Both the position numbers and the translations under genes were made by a program. This document shows, in pieces, positions 31,058 through 49,825 of a DNA stretch of 64,000 nt. The stretch comes from an uncultured virus (IMG/VR IMGVR_UViG_3300042196_000264) (taxonomy: Duplodnaviria > Heunggongvirae > Uroviricota > Caudoviricetes), in IMG/VR virus record IMGVR_UViG_3300042196_000264; one strand, 5' to 3'. Below the pieces are notes generated by a model. That model was given only the letters and a program-made list of their open reading frames with translations. It did no database searches and was not told where the DNA came from. Each line of letters opens with the position of its first letter. Positions within the stretch are counted from its first letter, which is position 1.

Positions 31058-31294
31058 ATGAAGCGCTTCGCACCATCCATCCTTCTGATCCCACTCCTGT
31101 TCTCCTGCGACCAGAAGGCAGCCAAGGCCGTCAGCTGCGCTGTCGCAGACGAGAAGCTCTCCGTCGCGTTCACGGATCCAGCGCGCGCGCGCGACTACCT
31201 GACAAGGCTTGCCGACCGTCTCGAGTCTGGTGAGCCCAAGGCAGCCGGGGAAGCGGCCGAGTTGGTGGCCACCATCGTCGAGTGCCTGCGCTGA
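31058..31294 (+). CDS. Small lipoprotein, copy 1
   Basis: MKRF...LLFSC lipobox-like; TACACT 6 nt upstream of ATG. Confidence 0.7.
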   Translation: MKRFAPSILLIPLLFSCDQKAAKAVSCAVADEKLSVAFTDPARARDYLTRLADRLESGEPKAAGEAAELVATIVECLR

Positions 31295-32999: not shown

Positions 33000-33326
33000 C
33001 TAGTGAGCCAGAATCCCGACATCATACTCGACGTGGACATGCTTCTCCGTACGATTCACAATTATGAGGACAATCGGATGACGCGCAGGCCAGGGCGTAA
33101 CGATCCTGTGGCTCTGGGAGCCGAGAGCCGTTCTCGGACCCGTGTCGAAGTTGGTTTCTCCGATATGCAAAAAACCATTCGACTCGGTTCGTGTGACAAC
33201 GTGAACGTCGACCTCTGACTTTGCCTTAACATATACGGCGATGAGTGTACTCCTGGGATTTGAAATATACCATGCCGTTATGTGAGAGTCCGGTGGGATC
33301 GTATCTTCCATCATCGCCGTAGCCAT
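33000..33326 (-). CDS. Small beta-sandwich hypothetical protein
   Basis: Lower GC; SEVDVHVV...LIIVN; convergent with and resembling the previous ORF. Confidence 0.5.
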   Translation of the reverse strand: MATAMMEDTIPPDSHITAWYISNPRSTLIAVYVKAKSEVDVHVVTRTESNGFLHIGETNFDTGPRTALGSQSHRIVTPWPARHPIVLIIVNRTEKHVHVEYDVGILAH

Positions 33327-33424
33327 CTGGGTTTAACTTCTCGTTTTAAGGCCACATCGACGACCATGCATCCTCTACGAGGCGAGAACTAAGCCGTGTT
33401 GAGGACGGGGCCGAGGTCGTCCTG

Positions 33425-33873
33425 CTTGGATCTTCGTGTGCGAGAGTCGGTATGCGTAGGGGTGGTTCCTTGGTTCTTCGTGTGCGAGAGAAGAGTGTTG
33501 CGGTGTCTCGAGCCACATCGACCGCCCATCCGCGCCAGCGACCGAGCAGCTTGGATCTTCGTGTGAGAGAGAAGAGCGTTGCGAGAGGTACGCCATGGGG
33601 TCCACGTCGTTGAGCGCGCATGCTTGGATCTTCGTGTGAGAGAGAAGAGCGTTGCGAGTAGGCAGAGCTTCCGTCGAGAGTGGGGCTCTGGAACTTGGAT
33701 CTTCGTGTGAGAGAGAAGAGCGTTGCGAGGCGAGAAATCGGGGATCCTCCGATGGGCCATGGAGGCTTGGATCTTCGTGTGAGAGAGAAGAGCGTTGCGA
33801 GGAGGAAGAGGCCATGAGACTGTTTTCGCAGCAAGTCCTTGGATCTTCGTGTGAGAGAGAAGAGCGTTGCGAG
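33425..33873 (-). CRISPR. CRISPR array 1: 5 intact repeats plus 1 degenerate and 1 truncated
   Basis: Repeat (minus sense) CTCGCAACGCTCTTCTCTCTCACACGAAGATCCAAG at 33550, 33623, 33694, 33766 and 33838; 35-37 nt spacers; decay at the left end. Confidence 0.95.
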
Positions 33874-33983
33874 TGGCCCCCTACTGGTGCACGTGCGAGG
33901 TGCTGGGGCCGTCGGCACCTGCGCATCATGGCACGCGGGGCCAGGGCGCGTCAACGCCCGGTCTTGCGTGCTAGTGCAAACCA
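33874..33983 (-). promoter_or_regulatory. Leader/promoter of array 1
   Basis: Minus strand TTTGCACTAGCACGCAAG box, then TTGACG-N18-CATGAT with a TG extension; homologous to the other two leaders. Confidence 0.8.
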
Positions 33984-34012
33984 TAGCCGGAGTTCATACA
34001 CTCCAACAACCC

Positions 34013-34246
34013 ATGAAGTCCCTCACGATCGTCCTCGCAGCGCTCCTCATCTCCTCTTGCGACCAGAAGGCAGCCAAGGCCGTCAGCTGCGCGATCGCGG
34101 ATGAGAAGCTCTCCGTCGCGTTTACGGATCCTGCACGAGCGCGCGACTATCTCACGAGACTCGCCGACCGACTGAAGACTGGCGAGCCCAAGGCCGCTGG
34201 AGAAGCAGCCGAGCTCGTGGCCACGAGCGTCGAGTGCCTACGATGA
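34013..34246 (+). CDS. Small lipoprotein, copy 2
   Basis: Mature part nearly identical to ORF 31058; LISSC; TACACT upstream. Confidence 0.7.
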   Translation: MKSLTIVLAALLISSCDQKAAKAVSCAIADEKLSVAFTDPARARDYLTRLADRLKTGEPKAAGEAAELVATSVECLR

Positions 34247-34565
34247 CACATGACGGCTAGATGACCCACGGACGATCGAGCAGCCAGACTTCCCAGGCCC
34301 ATGACGCGATCTGATTGCTGACCGATTTTGTTCCATCCAGCCGGCACCCGAACGCTCGCACGTGGCCTGCAGAGTACTTCCCGTGGGCCTCGCGGACCAG
34401 GAACGCCAACACATCCTGCCAACTTTTGCCATGGACCCTGGCGTAGTAGGTGGACGGTACGGACCCGTCCAGAACATCCGTACAGTCACGCAGTTCGACG
34501 CCATTGATGTGCGTGATTGTGACGTGCCTGCGCCCGCGCTTGCCAGATTTCTTCATCGAAGGTCC

Positions 34566-34760
34566 TCAAGTGGGAACGGTAGCTGAGGAAGGGTTTCGTC
34601 CGCGGATCTCGTTCGACATGGCGACCTCGGCCTCGAGCCTCGAGCCGAAGCCGCACTTGCACGACAGGGGTCCGTTCCTGTAGCGGCTCGTGACCGTCTC
34701 TCGCCAGCACCAATGCTGGCGGTGCCGATCGAAGTAAACCGTGAAGCCTGGAAACCTCAT
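34566..34760 (-). CDS. Small hypothetical protein
   Basis: Coupled to the stop of the Gp88-like gene. Confidence 0.45.
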   Translation of the reverse strand: MRFPGFTVYFDRHRQHWCWRETVTSRYRNGPLSCKCGFGSRLEAEVAMSNEIRGRNPSSATVPT

Positions 34761-35953
34761 CAGCGGAGCAGACTCCTGCGGATCGGGTTGGCGGCACGAG
34801 CCCCTTCGGACACATCGTTCTCCGCCACGCCAGGTTCGCTCCTCGGTGTCACAGCAGCGACGATCTGGCCATCGACGACGTGAACGGGCACCACGAAGAC
34901 CGTGTTGCGTTGGTCGATGCCAGCCCCCCTCGGTGGCTTGTACTTGAGGCCTACGATCACACCCTTCGGGTCCAGCGGACGAGCATCATGCGAGTCGCCG
35001 TCGATGACTTTCTTTCCGAGAAACATCGCCGGGAATCCGCCTGGCGTCCTCTTCCACTCGGTTGGACGTTCATGCTTGAAAAACACGACGGCGACGCGCT
35101 TGCCGATCTGGAGCTCGTGGCGGACCTCGTTGAGATTTCGGCCTGAGTACGAGAACGTCAGGTCGTAGTTGGACGGCACGCGTCGACCAGGGACCTTCGT
35201 GTAGTCGTAGAACTGCGCAGGCACACGCTCGAACAACTCCGGGAACACCATCTCCCACGGCACGTCTGAGAACACGTTCAGACGGATGAACGGTAGGATC
35301 CCAGATCTCTTCGGTCGTCCTGGGCCGGACGAGTCTCCGACATGTCGCTTGCAGGCCTCGTACAGGATCCTTCCGAAGGCGACAGGATCGCTCACGAAGG
35401 CTTCTGTCCTCGCCTTCTTCACGCGGGTGTTGTACGGGTCCGCTTCGTTTCTTCCCGAATACACGAGACAAGCCGATCGGCACTCGCGAGTCGCACCGAC
35501 GCAGGTGTTGATCCGCTGGGTGCCTCCAAGCTTGGTGTAGGCGACGTTCGGGAGCAGAGAGAGTCCCTGGACGTCGACGTAGTGAGACGGGTGCTCCTTG
35601 GAGGTCTTGTAGTTCTGACCGAGGAGACGATCGACCATGCCCGCTGGAGTCGAGTAGGAAGCCACTGCAGACCCATGCTTTCTGAGCTTCCCGAAGACCT
35701 TCATCATCCGCTCATGCGCGTCCACAAGGGATAGACGCTCGACGTCTCGCCACTCGATCCGGGTCTTCTTGACACCTCGCCATGCCAGCGCCGGACCCTG
35801 CGCGGCTGTAGGCGGATTCCCCTCGCGTTCGTCGAAGAGTGATGACCGGTCGACGAACACCTTCGGGGCGGCCCTTTTTCCCGTCTGGACAGCCTGGCCT
35901 TCCGTCTCTTCCGTGGTGAGGATCTCCCCGGAGGGACTGATGATCGCGAACAT
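34760..35953 (-). CDS. Phage Gp88-family (radical SAM-like) protein
   Basis: TCVGATRECRSAC, IRLNVFSD, FYDYTK, YDLTFSYS, IDGDSHDARPLD..GVIVGLKYK; likely start MFAII. Confidence 0.8.
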   Translation of the reverse strand: MFAIISPSGEILTTEETEGQAVQTGKRAAPKVFVDRSSLFDEREGNPPTAAQGPALAWRGVKKTRIEWRDVERLSLVDAHERMMKVFGKLRKHGSAVASYSTPAGMVDRLLGQNYKTSKEHPSHYVDVQGLSLLPNVAYTKLGGTQRINTCVGATRECRSACLVYSGRNEADPYNTRVKKARTEAFVSDPVAFGRILYEACKRHVGDSSGPGRPKRSGILPFIRLNVFSDVPWEMVFPELFERVPAQFYDYTKVPGRRVPSNYDLTFSYSGRNLNEVRHELQIGKRVAVVFFKHERPTEWKRTPGGFPAMFLGKKVIDGDSHDARPLDPKGVIVGLKYKPPRGAGIDQRNTVFVVPVHVVDGQIVAAVTPRSEPGVAENDVSEGARAANPIRRSLLR

Positions 35954-35992
35954 ACGTACAGGGTATCCTGGGGCTATGGTACCTTCAAGGAG

Positions 35993-36559
35993 GTGCCAGT
36001 CCTCGACCCCAGGCCATGGTTCTTCGACTACCAGCTGGCCCCCTGGCTCTCGGCCCTCCAACTCCGGGCCCACCTCGTCCACCACGCCGGGTACGTGAGC
36101 GAGGTGCGGGCCGCGGGGGACTTTGACGGGCTCGAGTCCGCCCTCGAGGAGGGGAGACGGGCGAACAACCTCAAGCTGATCCGTGCCGCCAACCAGGCAT
36201 GGAACCATCACATGCTCTGGCTCTCGCTCTCGCCGCGCGGCGGCGAGGTCCCGAAGCGCGGGCTCCTCGCCCAGACGAACGATATCTCGTCGAAGCTTCG
36301 CGCGGCGGCGATGGATGTCTGGGGCTCAGGCTGGGCATGGGTGACGCTCTACAAGAACAAGATCCGAGCGGTCTCGACACCGACGGATGAGAGGTGCCCT
36401 GGGTATCCTCTCCTATGCGTGGACATGTGGGAGCACGCCTACTACCTCGACTACATCGGAGATCGCGAACGGTACGTCGCAGAGATCATCATGAACCTCG
36501 TCAACTGGGAGTTCGCGGACATGCGGCTGAACGGGTTCGTCCCAGAGGAGTTGAGATGA
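35993..36559 (+). CDS. sod: Fe/Mn superoxide dismutase
   Basis: HHAGYV, WNH, GSGWAW and DMWEHAYY; all four metal ligands present; AAGGAG RBS. Confidence 0.9.
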   Translation: MPVLDPRPWFFDYQLAPWLSALQLRAHLVHHAGYVSEVRAAGDFDGLESALEEGRRANNLKLIRAANQAWNHHMLWLSLSPRGGEVPKRGLLAQTNDISSKLRAAAMDVWGSGWAWVTLYKNKIRAVSTPTDERCPGYPLLCVDMWEHAYYLDYIGDRERYVAEIIMNLVNWEFADMRLNGFVPEELR

Positions 36560-36757
36560 CGTACGACGACGGTGTTCTGCTCGAGCTCTACATCTCACTC
36601 GGGATCGAGATGGTCACGATCGACCGCTTGAGGCTGAGCGAGAAGACGAAGAATGCGATCGATTCTTGCCTCGGGACTCTCCTCGAAGGCATGACCAACG
36701 AAACGAAGTTACGGGCCGCCCATGCGGTCGTGAGTTTCAAGGAAAGGGATGGGAAAG

Positions 36758-36985
36758 ATGCCCCTGTTTGACTACGCGTGCAAGAAGTGCGGAGCAACGG
36801 AAGAGGTTCTGATGGGACGCGACGACGATGAGCCGTCCCACTGCGGGAAGACCATGGAGCGTCTCAAGTCGATCCCCCGTGGAATCGTCGTCAAGGGGTC
36901 TGACGGTCGTTCGGTGCGCCTTGGTGAAGAGACGGTGACGAAGGACGCCAACTTCACCTACACCGTCAAGAACGTGGAGGGGTGA
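36758..36985 (+). CDS. FmdB-family zinc ribbon protein
   Basis: MPLFDYACKKCG...HCG..MERL. Confidence 0.75.
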   Translation: MPLFDYACKKCGATEEVLMGRDDDEPSHCGKTMERLKSIPRGIVVKGSDGRSVRLGEETVTKDANFTYTVKNVEG

Positions 36986-37395
36986 TGCGGTGTCCGTACT
37001 GCGCCGGCAACCATCCGGCTGTCAGGCCTGTCAGCGCGTCGATCCTCAGCGCCGACCTCTCCAGGATGCTCGAGCAGGCCGGGTTCGTGCCTGAGGAGGC
37101 GACGGCGGTCCGGCACGCGCCGCTCGACCAGGAGCACGCTCGGAACCCAAGGCGGTACGCCCAGGTGGTACCGAACGATCTTCTGTTCGAGTTCTCGCAG
37201 GCGATCCTGTGGCTTCCTCGGGAGCATAGGATTGGACTGTTAGCGCACGAGGTCGGCCACTGCCTAGACCCCTTGGGCGGAGAAGACGGGGCGGACGAAG
37301 CAGCTCTCCGTGTCCTCGGCATCAAGATCGGCTACGATCCGCGTTGGCCTGGAAAGGGCCTTCAGACCGCAAGGAAGAAAAAATGGGCCTACTGA
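36985..37395 (+). CDS. HExxH metallopeptidase-like protein
   Basis: LLAHEVGH...E..AD. Confidence 0.6.
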   Translation: MRCPYCAGNHPAVRPVSASILSADLSRMLEQAGFVPEEATAVRHAPLDQEHARNPRRYAQVVPNDLLFEFSQAILWLPREHRIGLLAHEVGHCLDPLGGEDGADEAALRVLGIKIGYDPRWPGKGLQTARKKKWAY

Positions 37396-37922
37396 AGATC
37401 CCCTCCGCGCCACGCAAGTACCTCTACGAGGCCCCCGAGCTCGTGCCTGTTCCGTCAGGCAGGACTGCAGTAGAACTCGAGGGCATCGCAAGGAGCAGGA
37501 TCTCGCGAGCGGGCATGCGGATAGTGGTCTCCGAAACGCGGGACAACGCGGTCACCTGGCCCAATGGAGAAGTGGAACTCCCGCGCAACTGGAACTCACG
37601 AAGCGATGCTGACCAAGCGATCCTGCTCTGGCACGAGAGCGCGCATGCCTACCAGCGCAAGTCCATGGGTGCGTTCACCTATCGGTTTCGGTATGCGCTT
37701 GCCCAGGGGTGGTGGTTCGCGATGGAGGTCGAAGCCGAGCAACAGGAGATGTTGGCGATGCATCGGCTCGGCTTCACGTACTCGATCAAGTTGAACGAGG
37801 ACAGGCTTTGCGACGGAAAAACGTACAAGGCACTCTCCCGCTTCTACAACGAGAAGCATCTCCGTGAGATGTTCAGGGACGTGATGACCAAGAGGAAGAG
37901 GCTGATCGAGTCGACCCCGTGA
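37383..37922 (+). CDS. HExxH metallopeptidase-like protein
   Basis: LWHESAHAYQ...MEVEA. Confidence 0.65.
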   Translation: MGLLKIPSAPRKYLYEAPELVPVPSGRTAVELEGIARSRISRAGMRIVVSETRDNAVTWPNGEVELPRNWNSRSDADQAILLWHESAHAYQRKSMGAFTYRFRYALAQGWWFAMEVEAEQQEMLAMHRLGFTYSIKLNEDRLCDGKTYKALSRFYNEKHLREMFRDVMTKRKRLIESTP

Positions 37923-37926
37923 GCGG

Positions 37927-38280
37927 TCACGGAGCTCCGCGTCGTCTCATCTTGTGGCCTTCCCATAGTTCGCAAAGCATCGACTCAACCCGCGCACCGC
38001 ACCTCTTCCCGGACGGGTACTCGTGCCATACCGTCCCGCTCCCGACGTAGGTCTCCCCGTCCATCTCGATGACGTTGCCGCGGACGTCGTCCCAGAACTT
38101 CCAGCGCCTGGGAGGGTTCCCCTCCTCCTGGGCGGGCTGCGCATGGACCGCCATGGGGCGCCTGAACTGGATCGAGAGTCCGAAGAACGGCACTGGGAGA
38201 ACGTAGAGTGTCCGATCCTTGCGGCTCCAGTAGAAGCCGATCCAGAAGTCATACCAGGCGAAGATGAGGCGGACTTTCAT
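37927..38280 (-). CDS. Phage hypothetical protein
   Basis: FAWYDFWIGFYW motif; GAAGG RBS; directly downstream of the tRNA. Confidence 0.65.
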   Translation of the reverse strand: MKVRLIFAWYDFWIGFYWSRKDRTLYVLPVPFFGLSIQFRRPMAVHAQPAQEEGNPPRRWKFWDDVRGNVIEMDGETYVGSGTVWHEYPSGKRCGARVESMLCELWEGHKMRRRGAP

Positions 38281-38297
38281 GGTTCCTTCGCTTTCCG

Positions 38298-38373
38298 TGG
38301 TGCTCTCGGAAGGACTTGAACCTCCGACGCTCGGCACTTCAAGCCGACGCTCTACCAACTGAGCTACGAGAGC
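38298..38373 (-). tRNA. tRNA-Phe (GAA) with encoded CCA
   Basis: 76-nt cloverleaf: acceptor GCTCTCG/CGAGAGC-ACCA, anticodon arm TCGGC-TTGAAGT-GCCGA, T loop TTCAAGT. Confidence 0.93.
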
Positions 38374-38407
38374 TTTGCGATTGACGACGGGCCACCACGA
38401 GGAAGTA

Positions 38408-39385
38408 CTTGGATCTTCGTGTGAGGAAGATGTGTGTTGCGAGTGCGCACGAGGTCGACGTCCTGCCAACGGAGCGCCCTCCTGGATCTTCGTGTGAGGA
38501 AGAAGTGTGTTGCGAGATGGCGACCTCCGGTTGTCCCGTGAGGTACCGGGGGCTTGGATCTTCGTGTGAGGAAGAAGTGTGTTGCGAGTACCGCGCTACC
38601 GCCTCCTCCTTCCGCACCGCGTTCCTTGGATCTTCGTGTGAGGAAGAAGTGTGTTGCGAGTGGGGCGGGGCTATCATGCGGGTGCACGGCTGTGGATCTT
38701 GGATCTTCGTGTGAGGAAGATGTGTGTTGCGAGAGGGCGGTGGGTGCCTGCGGTACCTGGGACATGCCCACTTGGATCTTCGTGTGAGGAAGAAGTGCGT
38801 TGCGAGGTGACGCGAGCTTGCCGACGAAGCTCCGGTCCGAGACTTGGATCTTCGTGTGAGGAAGAAGTGCGTTGCGAGTGCAGACACCGGGTTGCCAGGT
38901 CGCGGTGTACGGACTTGGATCTTCGTGTGAGGAAGAAGTGTGTTGCGAGACCGGCGCTCTGGATAAGCGTATTCCAGCTTGACGTCTTGGATCTTCGTGT
39001 GAGGAAGAAGTGTGTTGCGAGGCTGGCTGGGCGAGCGCGCTCGCGGGCAGCGTCATCTTGGATCTTCGTGTGAGGAAGAAGTGTGTTGCGAGTTGTGCTC
39101 GCCCGCACTCGGCCTCCCAGCCATTCCTGCTTGGATCTTCGTGTGAGGAAGAAGTGTGTTGCGAGCTGCGTCGGGATGGCCTGGGACGGGGTGGCATGGC
39201 CGGCTTGGATCTTCGTGTGAGGAAGAAGTGTGTTGCGAGCTGACGACCACCGAGACCCACTCCCTGACGGGGGAGCTCTTGGATCTTCGTGTGAGGAAGA
39301 AGTGTGTTGCGAGTTCGAGCCTTTTCGCGTGAGCCTGGGAGTACTCGTCCTTGGATCTTCGTGTGAGGAAGAAGTGTGTTGCGAG
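38408..39385 (-). CRISPR. CRISPR array 2: 14 repeats, 13 spacers
   Basis: Repeat (minus sense) CTCGCAACACACTTCTTCCTCACACGAAGATCCAAG; 35-38 nt unique spacers. Confidence 0.97.
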
Positions 39386-39493
39386 AGCCACCCTGTTGCC
39401 ACGCTGGCGTGGTGATGAGGCAGTCGGCACATGCGCAGGATGGCACGCGACGTCTGAGTGCGTCAACCCCCGGCCTTGCGTGCTAGTGCAAAG
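39386..39493 (-). promoter_or_regulatory. Leader/promoter of array 2
   Basis: Same box, then TTGACG-N18-CATCCT. Confidence 0.8.
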
Positions 39494-39501
39494 TGAGGTG
39501 C

Positions 39502-40584
39502 TCACCGGGCCACCCACGTCAACTTCCGCGCCGCTCGTGTGGCCGCCGTGTACCGCCAGCGGCTGGCAGACCACATGTCCGCAACCTGGTCGAGCACGAG
39601 CACTCGATCCCACTCGCTGCCCTGCGCCTTGTGGGTCGTCAGGCAGTAGCCAAAATCGAAGAGACCGACGCTGCGTCTGTAGTCGTCGAGCTTCTTCGGC
39701 GCCCCGAATTGCTCCCAGTTCACGCGGACATCGGTGTAGGGCGTGCCATCGTCGGCAACGAAGTTGATCGTGTCGGCTCCGACGTCCGTCACGGAGCCCA
39801 TCATGCCGTTCCAGACGCCGAGTTCGTAGCTGTTCTGGAGACAGATCACCCGCTCTCCTAATCCTGGACGCGGGCCCGAGAACCCGAGTTGCCTCCTCAC
39901 CTTCGCGTTCACGGCGATGCGTGTGTTGTTGAAGCCGCACAGCACCACGTCGTAGTCGCAGACCCGTTCAGGGATCCTCCTCAGCACTTCCACGCTGGTA
40001 CCCGCGGACGCGTGGGAGGAAGACACCGGACTCACGTTGACACGCAGGTCATGGGCGAAGCGGATGATTGGGCTGCCGCTCGCTTGCCGATGGATCGTCT
40101 CGAGACGCGCGTCGAGGTGCCGCATGATCTCCGGGTCATCTCCGACTGGCTCGAGTTGGCCATGATCGCCGACGTACAGCACCTTCTTGCCGAAACTCTC
40201 GAGGTCGGACACGAGAGCGGAACTCAGCATCGAGGCCTCATCGACGACCACAAGATGGCATCCGATATGCCTGACCTTGCGGAAGCGAGGCGGATTCCCC
40301 TCCGCCTCGTAGATCAACCTGTGGACCGTCGTCGCAGGCACCCCCTTCGAGCGGAGCACGCTCGCCGCCTTGCCCGTCGGAGCACAGACGGCCACGCCCT
40401 CAGCGAGGTTCATGGTGTGGCTTCCCTCGTCCGTCCCACGTCCAAGGTTCAGGATCTCCTTGATGATGGTCGTCTTGCCCGTGCCGGCGTAGCCTCCGAG
40501 CACGAAGGTCTGCCGGAGCCCACTGGACAGCCACTCCGCGACGGAGTCCACCGCCGCGCGTTGTTCTTCGCTCAGGTCGATCAT
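39502..40584 (-). CDS. RecD/Dda-like SF1B DNA helicase
   Basis: GYAGTGKT, APTGKAA, TVHRL, VDEASM, GDHGQL, HRQ, TTHKAQGSEW, YTAATRA. Confidence 0.92.
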   Translation of the reverse strand: MIDLSEEQRAAVDSVAEWLSSGLRQTFVLGGYAGTGKTTIIKEILNLGRGTDEGSHTMNLAEGVAVCAPTGKAASVLRSKGVPATTVHRLIYEAEGNPPRFRKVRHIGCHLVVVDEASMLSSALVSDLESFGKKVLYVGDHGQLEPVGDDPEIMRHLDARLETIHRQASGSPIIRFAHDLRVNVSPVSSSHASAGTSVEVLRRIPERVCDYDVVLCGFNNTRIAVNAKVRRQLGFSGPRPGLGERVICLQNSYELGVWNGMMGSVTDVGADTINFVADDGTPYTDVRVNWEQFGAPKKLDDYRRSVGLFDFGYCLTTHKAQGSEWDRVLVLDQVADMWSASRWRYTAATRAARKLTWVAR

Positions 40585-40649
40585 CTTGCTCTAGGTGGCT
40601 TGGGGACGCCTTGACGTGTACCGTGCGTGACGGTAAGGTGCAAGTCCCC

Positions 40650-40946
40650 ATGCAACCACCTGGCCCTGACGACCCCATGAACCAAGACGCCCACGACCTC
40701 CACGAGAGGATCGAGGAGACCAAGTCCACCATCGTGACCATCCAGGACAGGATCAAGATCCTGCGCGAGATCGAGTCCGAAGTATTCGGCAAGATGGTCA
40801 CGCAGATCGACATCGCTCCGAAAACCAGGATCCTGGCGGACCTCGCGGTGGTCATCGCGGGCCAGCGAAGCTACCTTGAAGAGCTTCAGTCCAGCGTTGA
40901 GCCTGAACCCCTCAGAGCGTTCAGGTCACTCCTCAAGGGCCGATGA
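40650..40946 (+). CDS. Coiled-coil hypothetical protein
   Basis: First gene of a coupled + strand run; start uncertain. Confidence 0.55.
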   Translation: MQPPGPDDPMNQDAHDLHERIEETKSTIVTIQDRIKILREIESEVFGKMVTQIDIAPKTRILADLAVVIAGQRSYLEELQSSVEPEPLRAFRSLLKGR

Positions 40947-41350
40947 AGGTCTCCGCGGTCATCATCGCCGGCGGTCGAAACGTCCGGCTGAACGAACTCC
41001 AACGCAACGCCTTGGCGAGGCTGCTGATCCGGTTCCCTGAGTCCACCGTCATGAGCGGCGGTGCTTCTGGCGCGGATACCGACGGGGTTGAAGTTGCGAG
41101 CGGGCTCGGCCTCGAAATCCATGTCGAGCACGCTGACTGGACCACGTACGGCCGCTCCGCGGGGATCCGCAGGAACGCCGTGCTCGTGAAGCTCGCTCTG
41201 AACCGCGGGCGCGCCGTGCTGATCGCCTTCCCCGGAGGCCGAGGGACCGAGGATATGGTCACGAGATGCCGCCGTGCCGGGCTCATGGTGTTCCGTGTAG
41301 ACTCTTCCGGTGCGATCGGCGAACCTCAGGTTGAGGACTACGATGGCTGA
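40943..41350 (+). CDS. SLOG-superfamily (DUF2493/YspA-like) protein
   Basis: IIAGGR, SGGASGAD, ADW..YGRSAG.RRN, IAFPGGRGT. Confidence 0.85.
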   Translation: MKVSAVIIAGGRNVRLNELQRNALARLLIRFPESTVMSGGASGADTDGVEVASGLGLEIHVEHADWTTYGRSAGIRRNAVLVKLALNRGRAVLIAFPGGRGTEDMVTRCRRAGLMVFRVDSSGAIGEPQVEDYDG

Positions 41351-41660
41351 CATCCGAGAAGACATCCTTGTGCTCGCAGATAATCTCGACGATGTCTCAC
41401 CGGGCTTCTGGGTCTTGGCGCTCCGGGCGATCGTGAAGAAGCACGCTGCCGACCTGGACCGGATGCTTCGCGAGCGGAAGTGTCTCAACCTCCTGGCGGA
41501 CAACGGAGGCACCCTGGCATACGCGGACGGGGGGACCCGGTGCACGACGATGGGGCTCGACGGGGACCTCATCGAGACCCAATCTGAGGACACGTGCGAT
41601 GCAATCGAGAGGTGCTTCGCCAAGCTCGAAGAGACTCACCTCCGTAAGGACACGGCATGA
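41343..41660 (+). CDS. Hypothetical protein
   Basis: GAGG RBS; overlapping start. Confidence 0.55.
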   Translation: MADIREDILVLADNLDDVSPGFWVLALRAIVKKHAADLDRMLRERKCLNLLADNGGTLAYADGGTRCTTMGLDGDLIETQSEDTCDAIERCFAKLEETHLRKDTA

Positions 41661-41844
41661 CCCGTGCTGACTTCGAGCGGTGGTGCCTCATGGCGCCAGC
41701 ATGGTCACCGACGTGCGCGCGGACATCGGAAACCTCAGCTACACGCATCGTCGACCCAACGAAATTCGTTCCACCATGGCCCAAGATTCAACCGTACCGC
41801 GTGAGCCTGACCCTGCTTCCCGAACTTCCGGGGATCCCTGTGAG

Positions 41845-42129
41845 ATGACGGAGTGGTGGAAGACCCACCACCGAAGCCTGGGTTCGTCACCCACGTTCAC
41901 CGCCAAGATGGGGACACTGGAACTCGAGGTAGGCATCGAGTGCGATGGTTTTGCCTACTGGCAGGTGTCATGTTCCTCAGAGGACCAGCTCGCCGGTGGC
42001 AACGTCATCGATCCAGAGTTAGGGGACGGACCAAATGCACCGGACGGCTGGCAGAAACGAACGATCGCGATAGCGAAGGCGCGTTGCGAGAGGGTCGCTA
42101 GGACTCTCGCCGTGGAGGCCGCGGGATGA
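41845..42129 (+). CDS. Hypothetical protein
   Basis: ATGA coupling on both sides. Confidence 0.5.
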   Translation: MTEWWKTHHRSLGSSPTFTAKMGTLELEVGIECDGFAYWQVSCSSEDQLAGGNVIDPELGDGPNAPDGWQKRTIAIAKARCERVARTLAVEAAG

Positions 42130-42962
42130 CCGTCATCGAGTGGACGCACCCCCCGGGCTACAAAGGCGAAACCTGGAACCCGGCGACTGGATGCACGAAG
42201 GTCTCACAGGGATGCAAAAACTGTTTCGCAGAAGGTGTGGCTGAGAGGTTCTGGGGCGAGCGCAAGTTCACCGACGTTCGGATCCATCCCGAGCGCATCG
42301 GGAGTCCGCTGCGATGGAGGGATCCGCGGTTCGTCTTCGTCAACTCCATGTCGGATCTCTTTCACGAAGACATCGCCTTTAGCTTCGTGGCCTGCGTCGT
42401 CGACGTGATGCTGCAGACACCGCGGCACCGCTACATCGTGCTCACCAAGCGTCCACAACGCGCGAAGGATTTCTACCAATGGTGCGCGGACCAAGGCGGC
42501 GACGTGCCCAACAACCTGATCCTCGGCGTGTCTGCCGAGGATCAGAAGACCTTCGACGAGCGGGTCCCAGTGATCCTTGAGTGCCCAGCGGCTTGCTATG
42601 CCGTGAGCTACGAGCCGGCCCTCGACCAGGTGGACTTTTGTTTCGGCAGCTACCCGAGGAGCGGACCCCATGTGGAGTGGCTGATCGCCGGCGGTGAATC
42701 CGGACCGAACGCTAGGCCATGCGATGTCTCCTGGATACGTTCCGCGGTCTCCCAGGCACGGGACTCCGGATTCCCGGTGTTCGTCAAGCAACTCGGAACT
42801 CGGCCGCATCACGACTGCTCTCTTGGAGAGAAAAACTGGGACTGGTCTGAGTGTGAGACGCTCGCCAAGGTCCGTGATAGGAAGGGTGCGGACCCCAGCG
42901 AGTGGCCAGAGGACCTTCGTGTAAGGCAGTGGCCATCGATCCTCACGAAGGAAGACTCGTGA
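42126..42962 (+). CDS. Phage Gp37/Gp68 (DUF5131) radical SAM-like protein
   Basis: IEWT..TWNPATGCTKVSQGCKNCFAE, FVNSMSDLFH, LTKRP, WLIAGGESG, FVKQLG. Confidence 0.92.
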   Translation: MTVIEWTHPPGYKGETWNPATGCTKVSQGCKNCFAEGVAERFWGERKFTDVRIHPERIGSPLRWRDPRFVFVNSMSDLFHEDIAFSFVACVVDVMLQTPRHRYIVLTKRPQRAKDFYQWCADQGGDVPNNLILGVSAEDQKTFDERVPVILECPAACYAVSYEPALDQVDFCFGSYPRSGPHVEWLIAGGESGPNARPCDVSWIRSAVSQARDSGFPVFVKQLGTRPHHDCSLGEKNWDWSECETLAKVRDRKGADPSEWPEDLRVRQWPSILTKEDS

Positions 42963-43408
42963 TGGACATCGACCAGGTGATCGATCGCATCAGCGAAGGA
43001 CTGAAGCTTCCGCAGATCTCGTTCGCTTGGACGACGGAGGCGTTCTTGGCCGGTCACAAGACGGTGACGAGGCGCCAGGGGGCCAAGTGGATCCTCCTCA
43101 AGAAGGGAGACCTGCTCATGGCGATCGAGAAGGGGCAGGGACTGAAGCGCGGCGAGAAGGTCCGAAGGCTCGACGTCATCGAGGTCGTGAGCGCCATCCG
43201 AGTGGGAGTGTCATCGATCAACTACGAAGACCTATTTCGCGAGGGAGGGTCTTGGAAAAGCACCGAGGAGTTCGTCGAGATGTACTGCCGCGGGAACCGC
43301 TGCGAACCGGGTCACCTCTGCACACGCATCGAGTTCCGGAGACTCGGCGTTCCAGATGACGTGCTGAAGTCTGGGCAGATGGTTGCATCAAGGAGCGCTC
43401 GGCCATGA
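42961..43408 (+). CDS. ASCH/PUA-like protein
   Basis: ISF...GHKTVTRR...KKGDLL...REG...FVEM...RIEF; start approximate. Confidence 0.7.
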
Positions 43409-43623
43409 AGCCGAAGAAGACCACCGTCAAGCGAACGGGACCCATCACAAAACCGTGGCCCGTGTTCACGCGCGCGCTCGAAGAGGGGATCCGCGCCGGG
43501 CTCGTGCGCTCTCGCAAGCACACGGAAAGCCCAACCGATGAGGAGGTCTTCCAGAAGGTCTACGACTCCGTGCTCAACGAGGTACTCGAGGTCTTCGACT
43601 TTCCGGACGAGTGCGACTCTTGA
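43405..43623 (+). CDS. Phage hypothetical protein
   Basis: ALEEGI.AG..RSRKHTESP pattern. Confidence 0.6.
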   Translation: MKPKKTTVKRTGPITKPWPVFTRALEEGIRAGLVRSRKHTESPTDEEVFQKVYDSVLNEVLEVFDFPDECDS

Positions 43624-44654
43624 TCCGCGGCGGCTCCCTCTTCTCTGGGATCGGTGCGCTCGACCTCGCCATGGAACGCTGCGGCATCAGCGTTGCGTGG
43701 CAGTGCGAGAAGGACCCCTACTGCAGGACGCTCCTGGCCAAGCACTGGCCAGGAGTACGATGCTACGAGGACATCACACATGTCGACTTCGCATCAGCTG
43801 ACCCTGTGGACGCTCTCTTCGGAGGTTTCCCGTGCCAGGACGTCAGCGGAGCAGGGCTCCGTGCCGGTATGTCCGGCTCCCGTTCTGGACTCTGGCGGGA
43901 GTTTGCTCGAGCCGTTCGCGTGGTACGACCCAAGCTCGTCTACGTGGAAAACGTGGGCTCGGGACGGAGCCGGTATCTCGGAGACGTACTCGGGGACCTG
44001 GTCGAGCTCGGGTACAGTACAGGGTGGAATAGCCTGGAAGCGTGTGATGTCGGAGCCACGCAACTCCGGGATCGGTGCTTCATTCTGGGCTACACCGACC
44101 GCGACCAACTACGGCAGCTCGCAGAATGGCTTCAAGCGCAACCAGCCGAGCGGCGGGACACCCTCGCTCGAGAACATGGCGCGGGAGTTCCATCAGCGCG
44201 AGGACCTCTGGCCGACGTCATTAGCCGTGGATGCGAAGGATCTAGCCCAGTCGCAGGAGTATCAGGACGATCCGAAAAACGGAGCGAGCCTCCTCACGAT
44301 GGTGCGTGGGTTTCACCGGCGAGCGGACTTGTGGCCGACTGCAACGACAACGGATGCGAAGGACTCCGCCCGGCACACGACCACGTCGGAAGTCATGCAC
44401 CCGGGCACGATGCTGCTCGACGAGGTGAGGAACTTCCATTCCCGCCCGGACCTCGAGCCCCTACCGAAGAGTGGCGGGAGTGGTTCTCACGCGGTGGTCC
44501 TGCGCCCGGAGTTCGTCGAGACGCATATGGGGATCCCCGTGGGGTGGACGCACGACGACGGAAGTACCGACTTTACGTCCTTGGCAATGCCGTGGTCCCA
44601 GCGCAAGCGGAAGCCGCCTTCCGGTGGCTGATCGAGCGGCATGCTAGGATGTAG
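43611..44654 (+). CDS. dcm: C5 cytosine DNA methyltransferase, main polypeptide
   Basis: SLFSGIG (I), GGFPCQD (IV), VENV (VI), QLRDR (VIII), LGNAVVP (X). Confidence 0.88.
   Translation: MRLLIRGGSLFSGIGALDLAMERCGISVAWQCEKDPYCRTLLAKHWPGVRCYEDITHVDFASADPVDALFGGFPCQDVSGAGLRAGMSGSRSGLWREFARAVRVVRPKLVYVENVGSGRSRYLGDVLGDLVELGYSTGWNSLEACDVGATQLRDRCFILGYTDRDQLRQLAEWLQAQPAERRDTLAREHGAGVPSARGPLADVISRGCEGSSPVAGVSGRSEKRSEPPHDGAWVSPASGLVADCNDNGCEGLRPAHDHVGSHAPGHDAARRGEELPFPPGPRAPTEEWREWFSRGGPAPGVRRDAYGDPRGVDARRRKYRLYVLGNAVVPAQAEAAFRWLIERHARM
43780..44631 (+). CDS. Overlapping alternative-frame polypeptide of the methyltransferase (TRD/motif IX-like)
   Basis: Nested frame with repeated W(A/P)T..A.D.K units and LRPEFVETHMGIPVGWT. 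Confidence 0.7.
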   Translation: MSTSHQLTLWTLSSEVSRARTSAEQGSVPVCPAPVLDSGGSLLEPFAWYDPSSSTWKTWARDGAGISETYSGTWSSSGTVQGGIAWKRVMSEPRNSGIGASFWATPTATNYGSSQNGFKRNQPSGGTPSLENMAREFHQREDLWPTSLAVDAKDLAQSQEYQDDPKNGASLLTMVRGFHRRADLWPTATTTDAKDSARHTTTSEVMHPGTMLLDEVRNFHSRPDLEPLPKSGGSGSHAVVLRPEFVETHMGIPVGWTHDDGSTDFTSLAMPWSQRKRKPPSGG

Positions 44655-44658
44655 AGCA

Positions 44659-45465
44659 ATGCCAACGGTTCTGCCGAGCATCGATGTCACCATGCTGGCC
44701 TATAAGGAGCCAGCGATCGAGCACAACATCCGGAGTTGGCTTCCGCATGCAAGGAAGATTGTCGTGGTTGCAGGGGCAACCCTGGAAGCTCGAGGAGCCG
44801 GGTTCCCGGCCGTAGATGACGTGCTGGTGGAAAATCTCAGGATCATGGCGTTCCATGATTGCAGGATAGTCGTAGTGGACCGTGACACGTACTGGAAAGA
44901 CAAGAACGAGATGGCCGCGGCAGCTGCTGAACACCTGGGGGCAGACATCGTATGGCAGGTCGACGCAGACGAATTCTACTTCGCGGACGACATCGAACGA
45001 GCCAGGATGGAACTGGCTGACGATGGATGGGTCATCGCCAAGATGCCTCACATCATATTCTGGAAAGACAAGGAGCACGTGCTCCGTAGCCGTGCTGGCG
45101 ATGACTGGTTCGTACCTCAGCGCATCTGGAGGCGAGCGGACGGGGAAAGGTTCCTGCACCTTCCGTTCGGCACGATCCAGAAGTCAGATGGATCAGTGAC
45201 GACGTACGAGGGGAACGGCGTTCGAACTCTCGGATGGGGCCGCTGTTATCACAGTTGTTGGTGCCCACCTGCCGAGCGGATCGCATTCAAGTTTGCCTAT
45301 CACAAAGCAAGGGGAGACGGCGGATCCGAGCGATGGATCCATGATGTATGGGAAAACGGAGTGATCCCGCCAGAAGGTGTGCATCCCGGACAGACTGGGA
45401 TCTTTCCGACTCCGTTTTCCGGGCCGTGGCCACCAGCCTTTGTCGCGTCAGTTGAGTGCAAATGA
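44659..45465 (+). CDS. GT-A fold (GT2-like) glycosyltransferase
   Basis: WQVDADEFY DxD motif; lower GC than neighbours. Confidence 0.7.
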   Translation: MPTVLPSIDVTMLAYKEPAIEHNIRSWLPHARKIVVVAGATLEARGAGFPAVDDVLVENLRIMAFHDCRIVVVDRDTYWKDKNEMAAAAAEHLGADIVWQVDADEFYFADDIERARMELADDGWVIAKMPHIIFWKDKEHVLRSRAGDDWFVPQRIWRRADGERFLHLPFGTIQKSDGSVTTYEGNGVRTLGWGRCYHSCWCPPAERIAFKFAYHKARGDGGSERWIHDVWENGVIPPEGVHPGQTGIFPTPFSGPWPPAFVASVECK

Positions 45466-45491
45466 AAACACCACCGTTGCTGGCCATGCGG

Positions 45492-45516
45492 CTGCGTCGG
45501 GCTTCGCCCGACGCAG
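45492..45516. terminator. 11-bp perfect hairpin between the convergent GT gene and array 3
   Basis: CTGCGTCGGGC-TTC-GCCCGACGCAG; no clear U tract. Confidence 0.55.
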
Positions 45517-45539
45517 GTGTTGGAGTACCTAGGGATCCG

Positions 45540-46597
45540 CTTGGATCTTAGTGTGAGAAAGAAGTGTGTTGCGAGCGCAGCGACGGAGCGTCTGCCGCTG
45601 CTTCATCAGGTCCTGGATCTTCGTGTGAGGAAGAAGTGTGTTGCGAGGCGAACTCTACGGCCGCCCCCAGAGGTCTCGTCTGGCCTGGATCTTCGTGTGA
45701 GGAAGAAGTGCGTTGCGAGTCGGCGCCACGTCGGTGATCGTGAGTAGTGGATCGGTGTCCCTGGATCTTCGTGTGAGGAAGAAGTGTGTTGCGAGGCACC
45801 ATCCTGGGTCCGCTGGTGAAATATCACCGTCCTGGATCTTCGTGTGAGGAAGAAGTGTGTTGCGAGCCGAGACGATCCAGGCGGGGCTCCTGGACATCCT
45901 GCTCCTGGATCTTCGTGTGAGGAAGAAGTGTGTTGCGAGAAGGCATGATCAGCTTTGAGGCCACAGCGAACGCCATCCCTGGATCTTCGTGTGAGGAAGA
46001 AGTGTGTTGCGAGTACTCGCTCGCGCAGGTCGTGGAGGCCCTTGGGTCCCCTGGATCTTCGTGTGAGGAAGAAGTTGTGCTGCAAAGCCGTGCCCGTGAG
46101 CCCCCAGAGGAAGAGCGTACAGCGGCCTGGATCTTCGTGTGAGGAAGAAGTGTGCTGCAAGTCCAAGCCCGCCACGGTGCAGCTTGTCCTGTTTGGGCCT
46201 GGATCTTCGTGTGAGGAAGATGTGCGTTGCGAGTTCGCCCTGACGTTCGGCACCCTGCCCACGATGCGATACCTGGATCTTCGTGTGAGGAAGAAGTGTG
46301 TTGCGAGCGGGCAGGCCTGGATCGCGGTCGAGGGGGCAGGACGGGCCCTGGATCTTCGTGTGAGGAAGAAGTGTGTTGCGAGACTGCGCCCCCTGCGCCG
46401 GGCGCAGAAACGGTGGCACCTGGATCTTCGTGTGAGGAAGAAGTGTGTTGCGAGACGATCGTGGTGAACGGCCGGGAGATGCAGGTCGACCTGGATCTTC
46501 GTGTGAGGAAGAAGTGTGTTGCGAGGAGGATACGGGCGTGCGGTTGGCCGCGGACTGCATTCCTGGATCTTCGTGTGAGGAAGAAGTGTGTTGCGAG
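45540..46597 (-). CRISPR. CRISPR array 3: 15 repeats, 14 spacers
   Basis: Repeat (minus sense) CTCGCAACACACTTCTTCCTCACACGAAGATCCAGG; 35-40 nt spacers; degenerate leftmost repeat. Confidence 0.97.
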
Positions 46598-46707
46598 GGC
46601 CCCACTGTTGCCACGCTAGCATGGTACTGGGACCGTCGGCACTTGCGCAGGATGGCACGCGACGTCTGAGCGCGTCAAGGGCCGGTCTTGCGTGCTAGTG
46701 CAAAACC
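46598..46707 (-). promoter_or_regulatory. Leader/promoter of array 3, divergent from the effector gene
   Basis: Same box, then TTGACG-N18-CATCCT. Confidence 0.8.
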
Positions 46708-46783
46708 ATTCGCTAGAGCAAAGATCATGGGCGTGTCGATTTTCGCTTGTAGCTTTCCGTTCGGGACGGTAAGAAGCCCTCAC

Positions 46784-48586
46784 GTGGTCGACGCGAAACC
46801 AGACGCCAAGAAGGGCGTGCGCAGCAGGCTCCTCGAAGAGAAGAAGTCTCGGCGGGAGGCAGCGCTGCAGGACGGGCTCATGTGCGTGTACCAAGCGTAC
46901 AAGTACGAGATCCGTGAACGCTCGCCAGGACAGTTCCAGTTGCTGGCCAGGCACGCTGGCCTGAGCAGGTTCGCGAAAAACTGGTCGCTCCGGTTCTGGG
47001 TCAAGGAGCGAGAGGAGTTCGAGCGCGCGCGCGAACACATCAAGCTGCTGAAACTCGATGGATCCGCGGAAGCGGGCATCGCAGAGATCCAGAAGGTGCT
47101 TGACGAAGCCGTGAGGTCCTACTGGAGCTCGGCCATCCATGAGTCGTGGACGAAGGAAGCCCGCGATGTCGTGGACGAGATCGTGGCGTCCGCTCCGTTC
47201 GCCATCGTTCTGAACCTCGAACAGCAGCAGGAGAAGAGGGAGAAGATCGCGAAGGCGAAGGCAAAGGAAGCGGCGAAAAAGGCGAAGGAGGCGGCGAAGA
47301 GGTCTGCTTCCTCCCGCCGCAGCGTGGGCAGGCTCCGATCTGCAGCTCTTCCAGAAAAGGAAAAGGAAGAGGACAAGCCGCTGGAGATCGTAGAGCATCG
47401 GCGCACCCCTCTTGGGCTGCTGTCGAGGCTGTGGACGCAAACCGTCAAGCAGGTCTGCGTGAGCAGGGAGGATGGAAGCTTCTGGGCTGCGGGCCTGACC
47501 AGATGGGCCGCACAGGGTGCCCTCATCGCCACGGACGGAGCCTATTTCACGCACTTCAAAGCCCGTGCCAAGGCCAATCGTGGAGAGCTCTCTCGCGACG
47601 CAGTCCCAGGGCTCCCGACCTTCAAGAAGCGTAACGGGAAGAAGTCGTTCGCGGTCCAGTACTCGGGCGTCAAGTTGCCGCACGACGATGCGTCCCTTCG
47701 ACCCGATGAGGTGAAGGTCCAGGGCGTTGGAGTCGTAAGGCTCTACGAAGGACTGCAGAAGTTCCAGGGGACGATCAAGGCTGTCTCGGTCTCGAGCGAG
47801 GTTCGCGGCCGCTGGTGGATCTCGTTCACCGTCGAACGGACGCGACCGATCCCACGGCGTCGGCCGCAACCACGGGTAGGCGTCGACCTCGGAGCCAGGG
47901 ACACGATCACGCTCTCCGACGGCGTGGCGCACGAGCGCTCCTGGGAGGCTCCGAAACCGCTCGCCAACTCGCTCAAGAGGTTGCGTCGTCTCAGCAGGGC
48001 CCAGAGTCGTCGGAGAAAACCGTCGTGGGATAAGGAGACGCATGAGACCCTCGTCGAGGGGAGCAGCGGTTGGTACAAGGCTCGCCTCGAGGTCGCCAAG
48101 CTCAATTTCAAGATCGCGTGCCAGCGGCGGAACTGGCTCCACAACGTCACCACCGAGATCGCGAAGACGTACACCGACATCGTCATCGAGGGGTACAACG
48201 CCCGCGAGCTCGTGAAGAAGTCTCGCAAGGTCGTGAAGACGAAGGAGGGCCGTCGTAACATGGCCGACTCCGCAGTGGGGATGGCGCGATGGATGCTCAA
48301 GTACAAAGGTGACTGGTACGGGTGCCACGTCACCGTCGCCGACTCCAAGCTCCCCGCGAACAAGACCTGCTCCGTGTGCGGATGGGTGTCCCAACGCACG
48401 CAGTCCAAGAGGATCTACAAGTGTGATGCCTGCGGACAGCAGTGCATCAGGCCGATCAACACGGCAAGGTTTCTCGCTCGGTTTCGGCCAGGTGAGGAAG
48501 GACCGGCTATGGAATCCGGTCCCAAACTGGGTGGAGAGGACAAGCTAGCCCCGTCGGAAACGGCGGACGTGATGCCTCCTCCGTGA
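46784..48586 (+). CDS. tnpB: CRISPR-associated TnpB/Cas12-like RNA-guided protein, probably nuclease-dead
   Basis: AYKYEI...LLARHAG.SRF..NW, PTFKKR, GVDLG (RuvC-I), IVIEG (RuvC-II), CSVCG...CDACG zinc finger; RuvC-III reads IRPINTA in place of DRDxNAA; likely GTG start, about 600 aa. Confidence 0.88.
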   Translation: MVDAKPDAKKGVRSRLLEEKKSRREAALQDGLMCVYQAYKYEIRERSPGQFQLLARHAGLSRFAKNWSLRFWVKEREEFERAREHIKLLKLDGSAEAGIAEIQKVLDEAVRSYWSSAIHESWTKEARDVVDEIVASAPFAIVLNLEQQQEKREKIAKAKAKEAAKKAKEAAKRSASSRRSVGRLRSAALPEKEKEEDKPLEIVEHRRTPLGLLSRLWTQTVKQVCVSREDGSFWAAGLTRWAAQGALIATDGAYFTHFKARAKANRGELSRDAVPGLPTFKKRNGKKSFAVQYSGVKLPHDDASLRPDEVKVQGVGVVRLYEGLQKFQGTIKAVSVSSEVRGRWWISFTVERTRPIPRRRPQPRVGVDLGARDTITLSDGVAHERSWEAPKPLANSLKRLRRLSRAQSRRRKPSWDKETHETLVEGSSGWYKARLEVAKLNFKIACQRRNWLHNVTTEIAKTYTDIVIEGYNARELVKKSRKVVKTKEGRRNMADSAVGMARWMLKYKGDWYGCHVTVADSKLPANKTCSVCGWVSQRTQSKRIYKCDACGQQCIRPINTARFLARFRPGEEGPAMESGPKLGGEDKLAPSETADVMPPP

Positions 48587-48646
48587 AGCCCGGACTTCGT
48601 GTGAACTGCTTCGCCTCCCGGCAGGTAAATCTCGGGAGGCACTTTT
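48500..48646 (+). ncRNA. Putative tracrRNA derived from an omega-RNA scaffold
   Basis: Nested hairpins overlapping the gene end; CTTCGTGTGA at 48595-48604 is complementary to the crRNA repeat; 5' end uncertain. Confidence 0.75.
48613..48646 (+). terminator. Terminator after the putative tracrRNA
   Basis: GCCTCCCG...CGGGAGGC followed by ACTTTT. Confidence 0.7.
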
Positions 48647-49698: not shown

Positions 49699-49825
49699 CC
49701 GGAAAGTCCTAGCACACAAAATGGAAGCCTTTGTGACCTAGGAACAGGGGTTTCCACCCCCTCAAACACGCGTAAACAGCGCGCTATCTTAGGATTCCTA
49801 TAAGAGTTATAAGGGGCCGGACATC

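Follow-up and report, generated by a model that had tools for sequence, protein, structure and literature searches.

We examined a 64,000-nucleotide (nt) stretch of DNA (hereafter the window) from an uncultured Caudoviricetes virus, which is part of a 119,894-base-pair (bp) contig (IMG/VR record IMGVR_UViG_3300042196_000264). The window carries three co-oriented CRISPR arrays, each with its own copy of a conserved leader, and one gene for a compact TnpB-family protein from which the RuvC-III aspartate is missing. We consider it probable, though well short of certain, that a phage here carries a compact CRISPR system of type V-like design, with no adaptation genes in the window and with one TnpB-derived effector supplied by all three arrays. 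A first-pass annotation of the DNA had pointed to the arrays and to a shared effector; the minus-strand reading based on the conserved leaders, an alternative explanation of the constant repeat segment as a CRISPR RNA (crRNA) handle, and the loss of the RuvC-III aspartate go beyond it.

Three arrays that differ in their repeats

The arrays and the features associated with them are located as follows.

33425..33873, minus strand: array 1 (A1), five intact repeats and two decayed repeats at the low-coordinate (trailer) end; the intact repeat in crRNA sense is CTCGCAACGCTCTTCTCTCTCACACGAAGATCCAAG
33874..33980, minus strand: leader copy 1, with a minus-strand sigma-70-like promoter
38408..39385, minus strand: array 2 (A2), 14 repeats and 13 spacers
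39386..39492, minus strand: leader copy 2, 85% identical to leader 3 and 76% identical to leader 1
45540..46597, minus strand: array 3 (A3), 15 repeats and 14 spacers
46598..46704, minus strand: leader copy 3, between array 3 and the divergently oriented effector gene
46880..48586, plus strand: effector gene, 568 amino acids (aa), TnpB family
48430..48647, plus strand: putative trans-activating crRNA (tracrRNA) region, which takes in the 3´ end of the effector ORF
48590..48604, plus strand: predicted anti-repeat CCGGACTTCGTGTGA, present in a single copy in the window

The three arrays contain 7, 14 and 15 repeats of 36 nt. The 16-mer CTCACACGAAGATCCA occurs in 36 minus-strand copies with at most two mismatches, compared with 0.08 copies expected, and 33 of these are exact; the three inexact copies are the two decayed low-end repeats of A1 and the terminal low-end repeat of A3. 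The 31 regular spacers are 35–40 nt long and contain no duplicates, and the only two irregular intervals (8 and 45 nt) both lie in the decayed end of A1. The locus thus displays both sets of features by which a CRISPR array is recognized: regular, near-identical direct repeats with unique spacers of similar length, and a leader at one end with repeat decay at the other. The repeats do not form a strong palindrome.

Extraction of the repeats in register confirmed the first-pass annotation in its description of three co-oriented arrays at these places that differ either in the 5´ half of the repeat or in AAG versus AGG. In crRNA sense (minus strand), the A1 repeat differs from the A2 repeat at positions 9, 11, 17 and 18, and the A3 repeat differs at position 35, where it reads AGG instead of AAG. 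The statement that no spacer is shared between arrays also holds, as the longest word common to two arrays is 12 nt with one mismatch. The spacers do not match the rest of the window (longest exact word, 14 nt).

Leaders define the direction of transcription

A 107-nt leader is found at the high-coordinate end of each array and at that end only. Ungapped identity among the three copies is 76–85%, whereas the flanking sequence used for comparison, taken from the 107 nt beyond each copy and from the opposite side of the arrays, agrees at just 21–30 of 107 positions. A promoter scan identified TTGACG-N18-CATGAT on the minus strand of leader 1, from 33954 to 33925. The alignment shows that this block is also kept in leaders 2 and 3, where the second hexamer is CATCCT, and the distal 67 nt of the leader, which include the promoter block, are 84–91% identical. 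Decayed or degenerate repeats occur at the low end only (A1 and A3). The position of the leaders at the high end, the decay at the low end and the minus-strand promoter together indicate that the arrays are transcribed on the minus strand. For A3, transcription thus heads away from the effector gene. When the three leaders were folded as a consensus, no usable covariation emerged.

The far end of the leaders carries a further conserved element. CTTGCGTGCTAGTG occurs in four exact copies on the plus strand (32198, 33963, 39475 and 46687) against 0.33 expected; three of them stand at the far end of the leaders, and the fourth stands alone at 32198. Three of the four copies lie upstream of a plus-strand gene, the effector gene included, and the element is possibly a phage promoter or operator. 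In addition, a tRNA-Phe (GAA) gene is located at 38298–38373 (minus strand), 34 nt beyond the last A2 repeat and on the same strand, so that read-through from the A2 leader would co-transcribe it.

A single TnpB-derived effector with one close relative

The effector gene begins 283 nt from array 3. Its start codon (ATG, 46880) is backed by end-to-end alignment with P0002, its sole close relative. The effector is the only Cas-like gene in the window and is present there in one copy; a single TnpB-like protein with a split RuvC domain is therefore encoded beside an array, which is the arrangement of a type V system. It matches OrfB_IS605, Cas12f1-like_TNB and HTH_OrfB_IS605 in Pfam. Among the NCBIfam models, it passes the cut-off of guided_TnpB (146 bits against 100) and stays below that of IS607_TnpB (171 bits against 350). 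Neither a TnpA (Y1) nor a serine recombinase domain was detected by Pfam among the 115 open reading frames (ORFs) of the window.

In a HMMER search of 1.84 billion representative proteins, P0002, which is encoded on an 11.9-kb contig, is the closest relative (66% identity) and the only one above about 40% identity. The next match (E = 1.6e-42) covers the C-terminal two-thirds only, and 8,761 proteins were retrieved at E ≤ 0.001. Only the effector and P0002 possess the N-terminal 200 aa, which include a Lys/Glu-rich insert and represent an expansion relative to TnpBs of about 400 aa. The neighbours of the effector in the Atlas are mostly Actinomycetota TnpBs. Compared with proteins of solved structure, the effector is closest to ISDra2 TnpB (8BF8, E = 1.8e-21), followed by RdCas12n (E = 1.4e-19) and LaTranC (E = 3e-9); this ranking, which places the effector nearer to TnpB than to RdCas12n, argues against a grouping by sequence with Cas12n (V-U4). 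The CRISPR effector of solved structure nearest to the profile of the clade described below is RdCas12n (9J09, 263 bits), while LaTranC scores 118 bits. PADLOC labels the effector Cas12u4, and this label is not diagnostic, because the same profile gives ordinary TnpBs 310 bits and the effector 170 bits.

Searches for related loci returned none with an array. No relative of the effector was found in IMG/VR, where two single matches to CTCACACGAAGATCCA are not arrays, and a metagenome scan with the repeat pattern gave no match. Protein-based scans yielded 24 metagenome loci and one genome locus, all with at most 42% identity (best segment). None of these 25 loci has an array, and the RuvC-III motif, which is readable in 18 of them, contains the canonical Asp in every case. 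The best match in the phage collection, LR745208, was dismissed as a related system, being a canonical TnpB without an array.

The RuvC-III aspartate is replaced by proline

Alignment with proteins in the Protein Data Bank shows that RuvC-I (VGVDLG, D336) and RuvC-II (IVIEGYN, E437) are kept in the effector. The RuvC-III Asp, which is D361 in ISDra2 TnpB (RDENAA) and is likewise present in RdCas12n (RDLNAA), aligns without gaps to P525 of the effector (RPINTA). The RuvC D-E-D triad is thus incomplete, with one residue of three lost, and P0002 also lacks the RuvC-III Asp. Asp occupies this position in 31 of 49 aligned proteins, and the other 18 carry Q, P, R or G there, with x-N-T-A behind it. 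In a maximum-likelihood tree of the 49 sequences, a clade of 17 (support 98/97), the effector among them, unites all but one of the non-Asp proteins and constitutes a monophyletic TnpB group with a conserved non-Asp RuvC-III motif. The alignment contains no compensating acidic column. Sequences of the non-Asp clade diverge too much for their alignment to serve in a search for further loci.

Six large TnpB branches with altered RuvC-III have been reported, and it was suggested that conserved alterations may retain activity, while TnpBs linked to tyrosine recombinases are described as inactivated (Altae-Tran et al., 2023; PMC10691335). In the present locus, a tyrosine recombinase gene stands tail-to-tail with the effector gene at a distance of about 60 nt. 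Among the non-Asp proteins, the RuvC-III position varies (Q, P, R or G), which speaks against that residue being catalytic itself, and the persistence of D and E in 17 of these 18 proteins speaks against a complete loss of activity long ago. Judged by these residues, the effector either binds DNA without cutting or uses a rearranged active site, two possibilities to which we give about equal weight; it may not be a nuclease at all.

The C-terminal tail of the effector (encoded by 48476–48583) has conserved features of its own. Most members of the non-Asp clade share GRG.PP ... GG ... ARG after RuvC-III, and the tails of the effector and P0002 share GP.LGGED..APS. This motif may be shaped at the RNA level, by a scaffold RNA that overlaps the gene, or may belong to a tail extending into the active site; the conserved GGED is a candidate for an acidic residue at the RuvC-III position.

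A putative tracrRNA at the 3´ end of the effector gene

The predicted anti-repeat starts four bases past the effector stop codon, and its 15-mer is unique in the window. It is predicted to pair with repeat positions 20–33 in crRNA sense through 10 bp plus 3 bp across a one-base bulge. The predicted duplex energies are −20.8 kcal/mol for A1, −20.8 kcal/mol for A2 and −22.3 kcal/mol for A3, in which G35 adds two pairs. Just 17 of 40,830 windows score equally well or better, and the same 13 bp recur in all nine co-folds (three tracrRNA boundaries with three arrays). An early anti-repeat scan in 50-nt windows had been discarded, as it was swamped by G-U-rich chance duplexes. Behind the anti-repeat lies a 9-bp hairpin (48613–48640), followed by ACUUUUC.

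The layout of the putative tracrRNA region was drawn by analogy with the omegaRNA of TnpB and with Cas12n, for which a tracrRNA that overlaps the ORF 3´ end and a disordered C-terminal tail have been reported (PMC12216341). The succession of anti-repeat and hairpin appears to match that of TnpB, Cas12n and TranC systems, and a tracrRNA at the 3´ end of the effector gene is accordingly put forward here as a prediction from comparison rather than as an observation. In Rfam, tRNA alone reaches the gathering threshold, and around the effector only matches with E > 4 appear; no RNA run is listed among the sequencing runs that match the locus.

The first-pass annotation held that one effector serves all three arrays. 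In favor of this, the window contains one Cas-like gene and one anti-repeat, with which the three repeat variants are computed to pair almost equally well; the loading of all three arrays onto the effector is what we infer from this pairing.

Repeat constraint and array growth

Variation among the repeats is confined almost entirely to positions outside the segment that would pair with the tracrRNA. With three repeats set aside (two from A1 that are degenerate and one at 46050 that carries an indel), the other 33 contain 14 variant events, counted as combinations of array and base, at nine positions. Thirteen of the 14 fall outside the core (positions 19–34), and the sole event inside it belongs to the terminal repeat of A3. 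The constant core described in the first pass therefore stands with this one exception. Under uniform placement, the binomial probability of at most one event inside the core is about 0.003 by our own arithmetic, for events that are not independent, since the same changes recur in different arrays. The constancy of the core fits selection on the tracrRNA-pairing segment.

The distribution of AAG and AGG provides an indication of how the arrays grew. The oldest A3 repeat, which is the terminal low-end one, keeps AAG and carries two further changes, and the 14 others end in AGG, as expected if a leader-proximal repeat had mutated and was then copied; AGG also occurs in one old A2 repeat. Together with unshared spacers and separate leader copies, this pattern lends indirect support to the suggestion that the three arrays grew independently. 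Cas1, Cas2, Cas4 or a second effector were not found by Pfam in the 115 ORFs, a scan outside which lie about 56 kb of the contig and the host. The earlier proposal that spacers are acquired by machinery encoded elsewhere agrees with this absence to the extent of the sequence scanned.

Sequencing runs point to variation of the arrays within the population. Part of the locus is present in nine DNA runs, which come from nine studies; three of the runs contain 66–74% of the sampled words, and contigs of four runs were compared with window positions 33000–49000. Run X1, which may be the source sample, is identical to the window in unique stretches. In runs X1 and X3, a contig joins the flank on the tRNA side (38407) directly to the fifth A2 repeat (38698) and so skips the four oldest A2 units; the junction falls between two repeats with the same variant, and it represents either a deletion allele or an assembly path. 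The same two runs contain repeat-spacer units that are absent from the window, at phage-like depth, and the spacer of one such unit is a near-copy of the A2 spacer at 38950–38985. One contig in this comparison also has a junction of leader and repeat that differs from all three in the window. These observations point to a fourth array or to array alleles, and the extra units and the new junction imply that three arrays may be a lower bound.

Proposed mechanism and alternative explanations

In the mechanism that we propose, three paralogous modules, each composed of a 107-nt leader with a promoter and 36-nt repeats, would be transcribed from the minus strand, and each resulting crRNA would retain the 3´ portion of its repeat in front of the spacer. 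This repeat portion would pair with one tracrRNA, read from the plus strand and comprising roughly 60 nt downstream of the effector gene together with that gene's 3´ end, and the tracrRNA:crRNA duplex would load onto the one TnpB-derived effector of 568 aa. Repeat changes would be tolerated only outside the pairing, retained segment, and for this reason the three arrays could differ and yet serve one effector. With Pro at the position of the RuvC-III Asp, the effector would have a rearranged active site or would bind its target instead of cutting it.

Several observations weigh against this mechanism. Exact matching of the anti-repeat extends over a seed of only 10 nt, and the window contains four repeat-matching 10-mers outside the arrays, which is the chance level; it is consequently the position of the anti-repeat, not the match itself, that carries the argument for a tracrRNA. 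The hairpin behind the anti-repeat fails a consensus terminator scan, and the folding z-scores of the hairpin and of the tracrRNA region are weak and unremarkable. Conservation of the leader is lowest in the 40 nt that adjoin the first repeat (62–75% identity) and highest in the promoter part, and so looks transcriptional rather than integration-related. The repeat changes that recur across arrays, at positions 9, 13 and 35, may reflect exchange between the arrays. The constancy of the core fits equally well the retained handle of a mature type V crRNA, with or without a tracrRNA; from the first-pass claim of selection on the pairing segment, the constancy thus remains, and its cause has two equally good explanations. 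Finally, no protospacer was found for the spacers searched in phages, plasmids and IMG/VR, and interference is a prediction. The spacers of arrays 2 and 3 gave chance-level matches alone (E ≥ 0.3) against 50,697 phage and 72,556 plasmid records, and exact 24-mers of three leader-proximal spacers had no match in IMG/VR.

The arrays could instead belong to another Cas system, encoded by the host or by the rest of the phage genome, and the TnpB-like gene could be an unrelated domesticated or transposon TnpB with its own omegaRNA beside array 3. This would be in keeping with a window in which neither an adaptation module nor a second effector was found and with a seed match no better than chance would yield in the window. 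Arrays with the repeats of the host have been described in phages and may rely on Cas proteins of the host (Al-Shayeb 2020; PMC7162821), and the tyrosine recombinase next to the effector gene recalls reported associations between TnpB and recombinases (PMC10691335). Such an origin is nevertheless unlikely in our view, because the anti-repeat is located exactly at the site of the TnpB guide/scaffold junction, on the strand that pairs with the leader-defined transcript, and pairs with the spacer-proximal part of the repeat. Moreover, the window contains neither a TnpA gene nor a second copy of the TnpB-like gene, the protein is lengthened in the manner of domesticated Cas12 proteins, and the repeats lack a strong palindrome (their own hairpin reaches only about −3 kcal/mol). 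The same hairpin, UCUUC/GAAGA, would be the handle if the effector used crRNA alone and the anti-repeat match were a coincidence. Phage effectors such as Cas-phi are reported to be tracrRNA-independent, and the 5-bp hairpin is present in all three repeat variants, with a shifted register in A1. It is, however, weak (−3.0 to −3.2 kcal/mol; z-scores −0.7 to −2.5), and TnpB-size proteins depend on a scaffold RNA of at least 100 nt (structures 8BF8 and 9J09), for which a 36-nt repeat is too short, which makes a crRNA-only effector improbable. We attach a similarly small probability to the view that the arrays are inert relics, products of leader-repeat duplication in which spacer acquisition and guiding have both ceased. 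The lack of Cas1, Cas2 and Cas4 in the window, the lack of a match for the spacers searched in the three collections and the decay of A1 at one end would all suit inert arrays, but an exact core in 33 of 36 repeats, a promoter block that is the best conserved part of the leader, and an intact effector ORF conserved with P0002 would not, nor would the array differences and extra repeat-spacer units in contigs of other runs.

Comparison with known systems

A system in which three arrays would serve one TnpB-derived effector can be compared with several described ones. Cas12n (V-N, formerly V-U4; RdCas12n, 9J09) resembles the effector in being TnpB-proximal and compact, with about 400–700 aa, and a tracrRNA over the ORF 3´ end, of the kind predicted here, and a C-terminal tail are reported for it (PMC12216341). 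An A-rich 5´ PAM and a monomeric complex are further features of the Cas12n group. In contrast to the RPINTA of the effector, RuvC-III of RdCas12n is the canonical RD.NAA, and the effector scores higher with plain ISDra2 TnpB than with 9J09. TranC and the roughly 50 independent origins of Cas12 from TnpB (V-U6 to V-U45) likewise involve a TnpB-lineage protein tied to arrays without an adaptation module (PMC13565253; PMC10691335), and in TranC the omegaRNA is apparently split into tracrRNA and crRNA, as is predicted here. The effector has only weak similarity to LaTranC, and the present system differs in being phage-borne with three dispersed arrays. Repeated independent transitions from TnpB to Cas12, with TranC as intermediates, are thus already in print in these two reports.

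Also in print are type V-U and V-F systems of huge phages without Cas1, Cas2 and Cas4, with compact phage arrays and with 'dCas14' (Al-Shayeb 2020; PMC7162821). Multiple arrays and tracrRNA-using effectors derived from TnpB likewise belong to the published picture. They share with the present locus the phage context, the missing adaptation genes and a compact effector minus one catalytic residue, and 'dCas14' was proposed there to repress instead of cut. The arrays described here are longer than the median of six repeats given in that report and are three in number, each with a leader; the effector belongs to another lineage, and the contig is about 120 kb rather than more than 200 kb. Cas12k, Cas12m and TldR have an incomplete RuvC catalytic set too, which makes RNA-guided binding without cleavage possible. 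Unlike in these proteins, only one of the three residues is changed here, with D and E kept in 17 of the 18 non-Asp proteins, and the locus contains neither a transposase (as for Cas12k) nor a target-gene partner (as for TldR). By analogy, the locus would work like phage type V and TranC systems, with membership demonstrated neither in Cas12n nor in the TranC lineage of solved structure. What appears to be new is the effector lineage, although the published trees of PMC10691335 may already contain the clade, together with a non-Asp RuvC-III in a CRISPR-linked, phage-borne protein and the presence of three scattered arrays that differ in repeat variant and each have a separate leader copy.

Genomic context

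One neighbouring gene flanks the effector gene on its far side.

48646..49719, minus strand: tyrosine recombinase (phage integrase family), tail-to-tail with the effector gene across a gap of about 60 nt

We call the context phage-like on the basis of PHROG matches to tail-fibre, Dda-like helicase and clamp proteins, a Pfam GP88 match and the integrase. No capsid or terminase gene was recognized in the window, and most genes are orphans. Two long collagen-repeat proteins (58543–60804 and 61502–63853, minus strand) have phage tail-fibre PHROG matches. Two small lipoprotein-like paralogues (30929–31294 and 33839–34246, plus strand) share 74% identity, and one of them lies directly behind the A1 leader. 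Between arrays 1 and 2, a gene for an Fe/Mn superoxide dismutase-like protein is found at 35993–36559 (plus strand); its nearest non-self relative is 56% identical and is encoded on a 26.6-kb metagenome contig, possibly of a related phage. In runs X2 and X3, a contig skips 1077 nt (34811–35889) inside a GP88-family gene (34760–36211), which indicates that strains differ by an insertion or deletion there. A 774-aa protein (27973–30297, plus strand) consists of about 25 repeats of a unit of about 23 aa (..AAASFLFTANDP..) and a Pro-rich tail, and a weak DP-EP match is its only family match. The region 53058–54139 comprises about 180 tandem copies of a 6-nt unit (CGGTCG, 67% matches) with several overlapping open frames.

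Implications

The locus represents an almost unsampled, phage-carried lineage in the transition from TnpB to CRISPR effectors. Three diverged repeat variants in one genome are a natural experiment that marks the positions which the effector and tracrRNA need, and a RuvC-III Asp that is missing while the other two residues are kept offers a test case for rearranged nucleases versus binders. At 568 aa, the effector is also of interest for tool building. More speculatively, and with a probability that we put low, the effector could be a natural RNA-guided DNA binder with 31 or more guides in at least three arrays, through which a temperate-looking phage silences genes of rival elements or of the host; as a still more speculative variant, the guides could direct the tail-to-tail tyrosine recombinase. 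If this were true, a TnpB lineage not sampled before would have given rise to a programmable repressor or targeting system carried by a phage.

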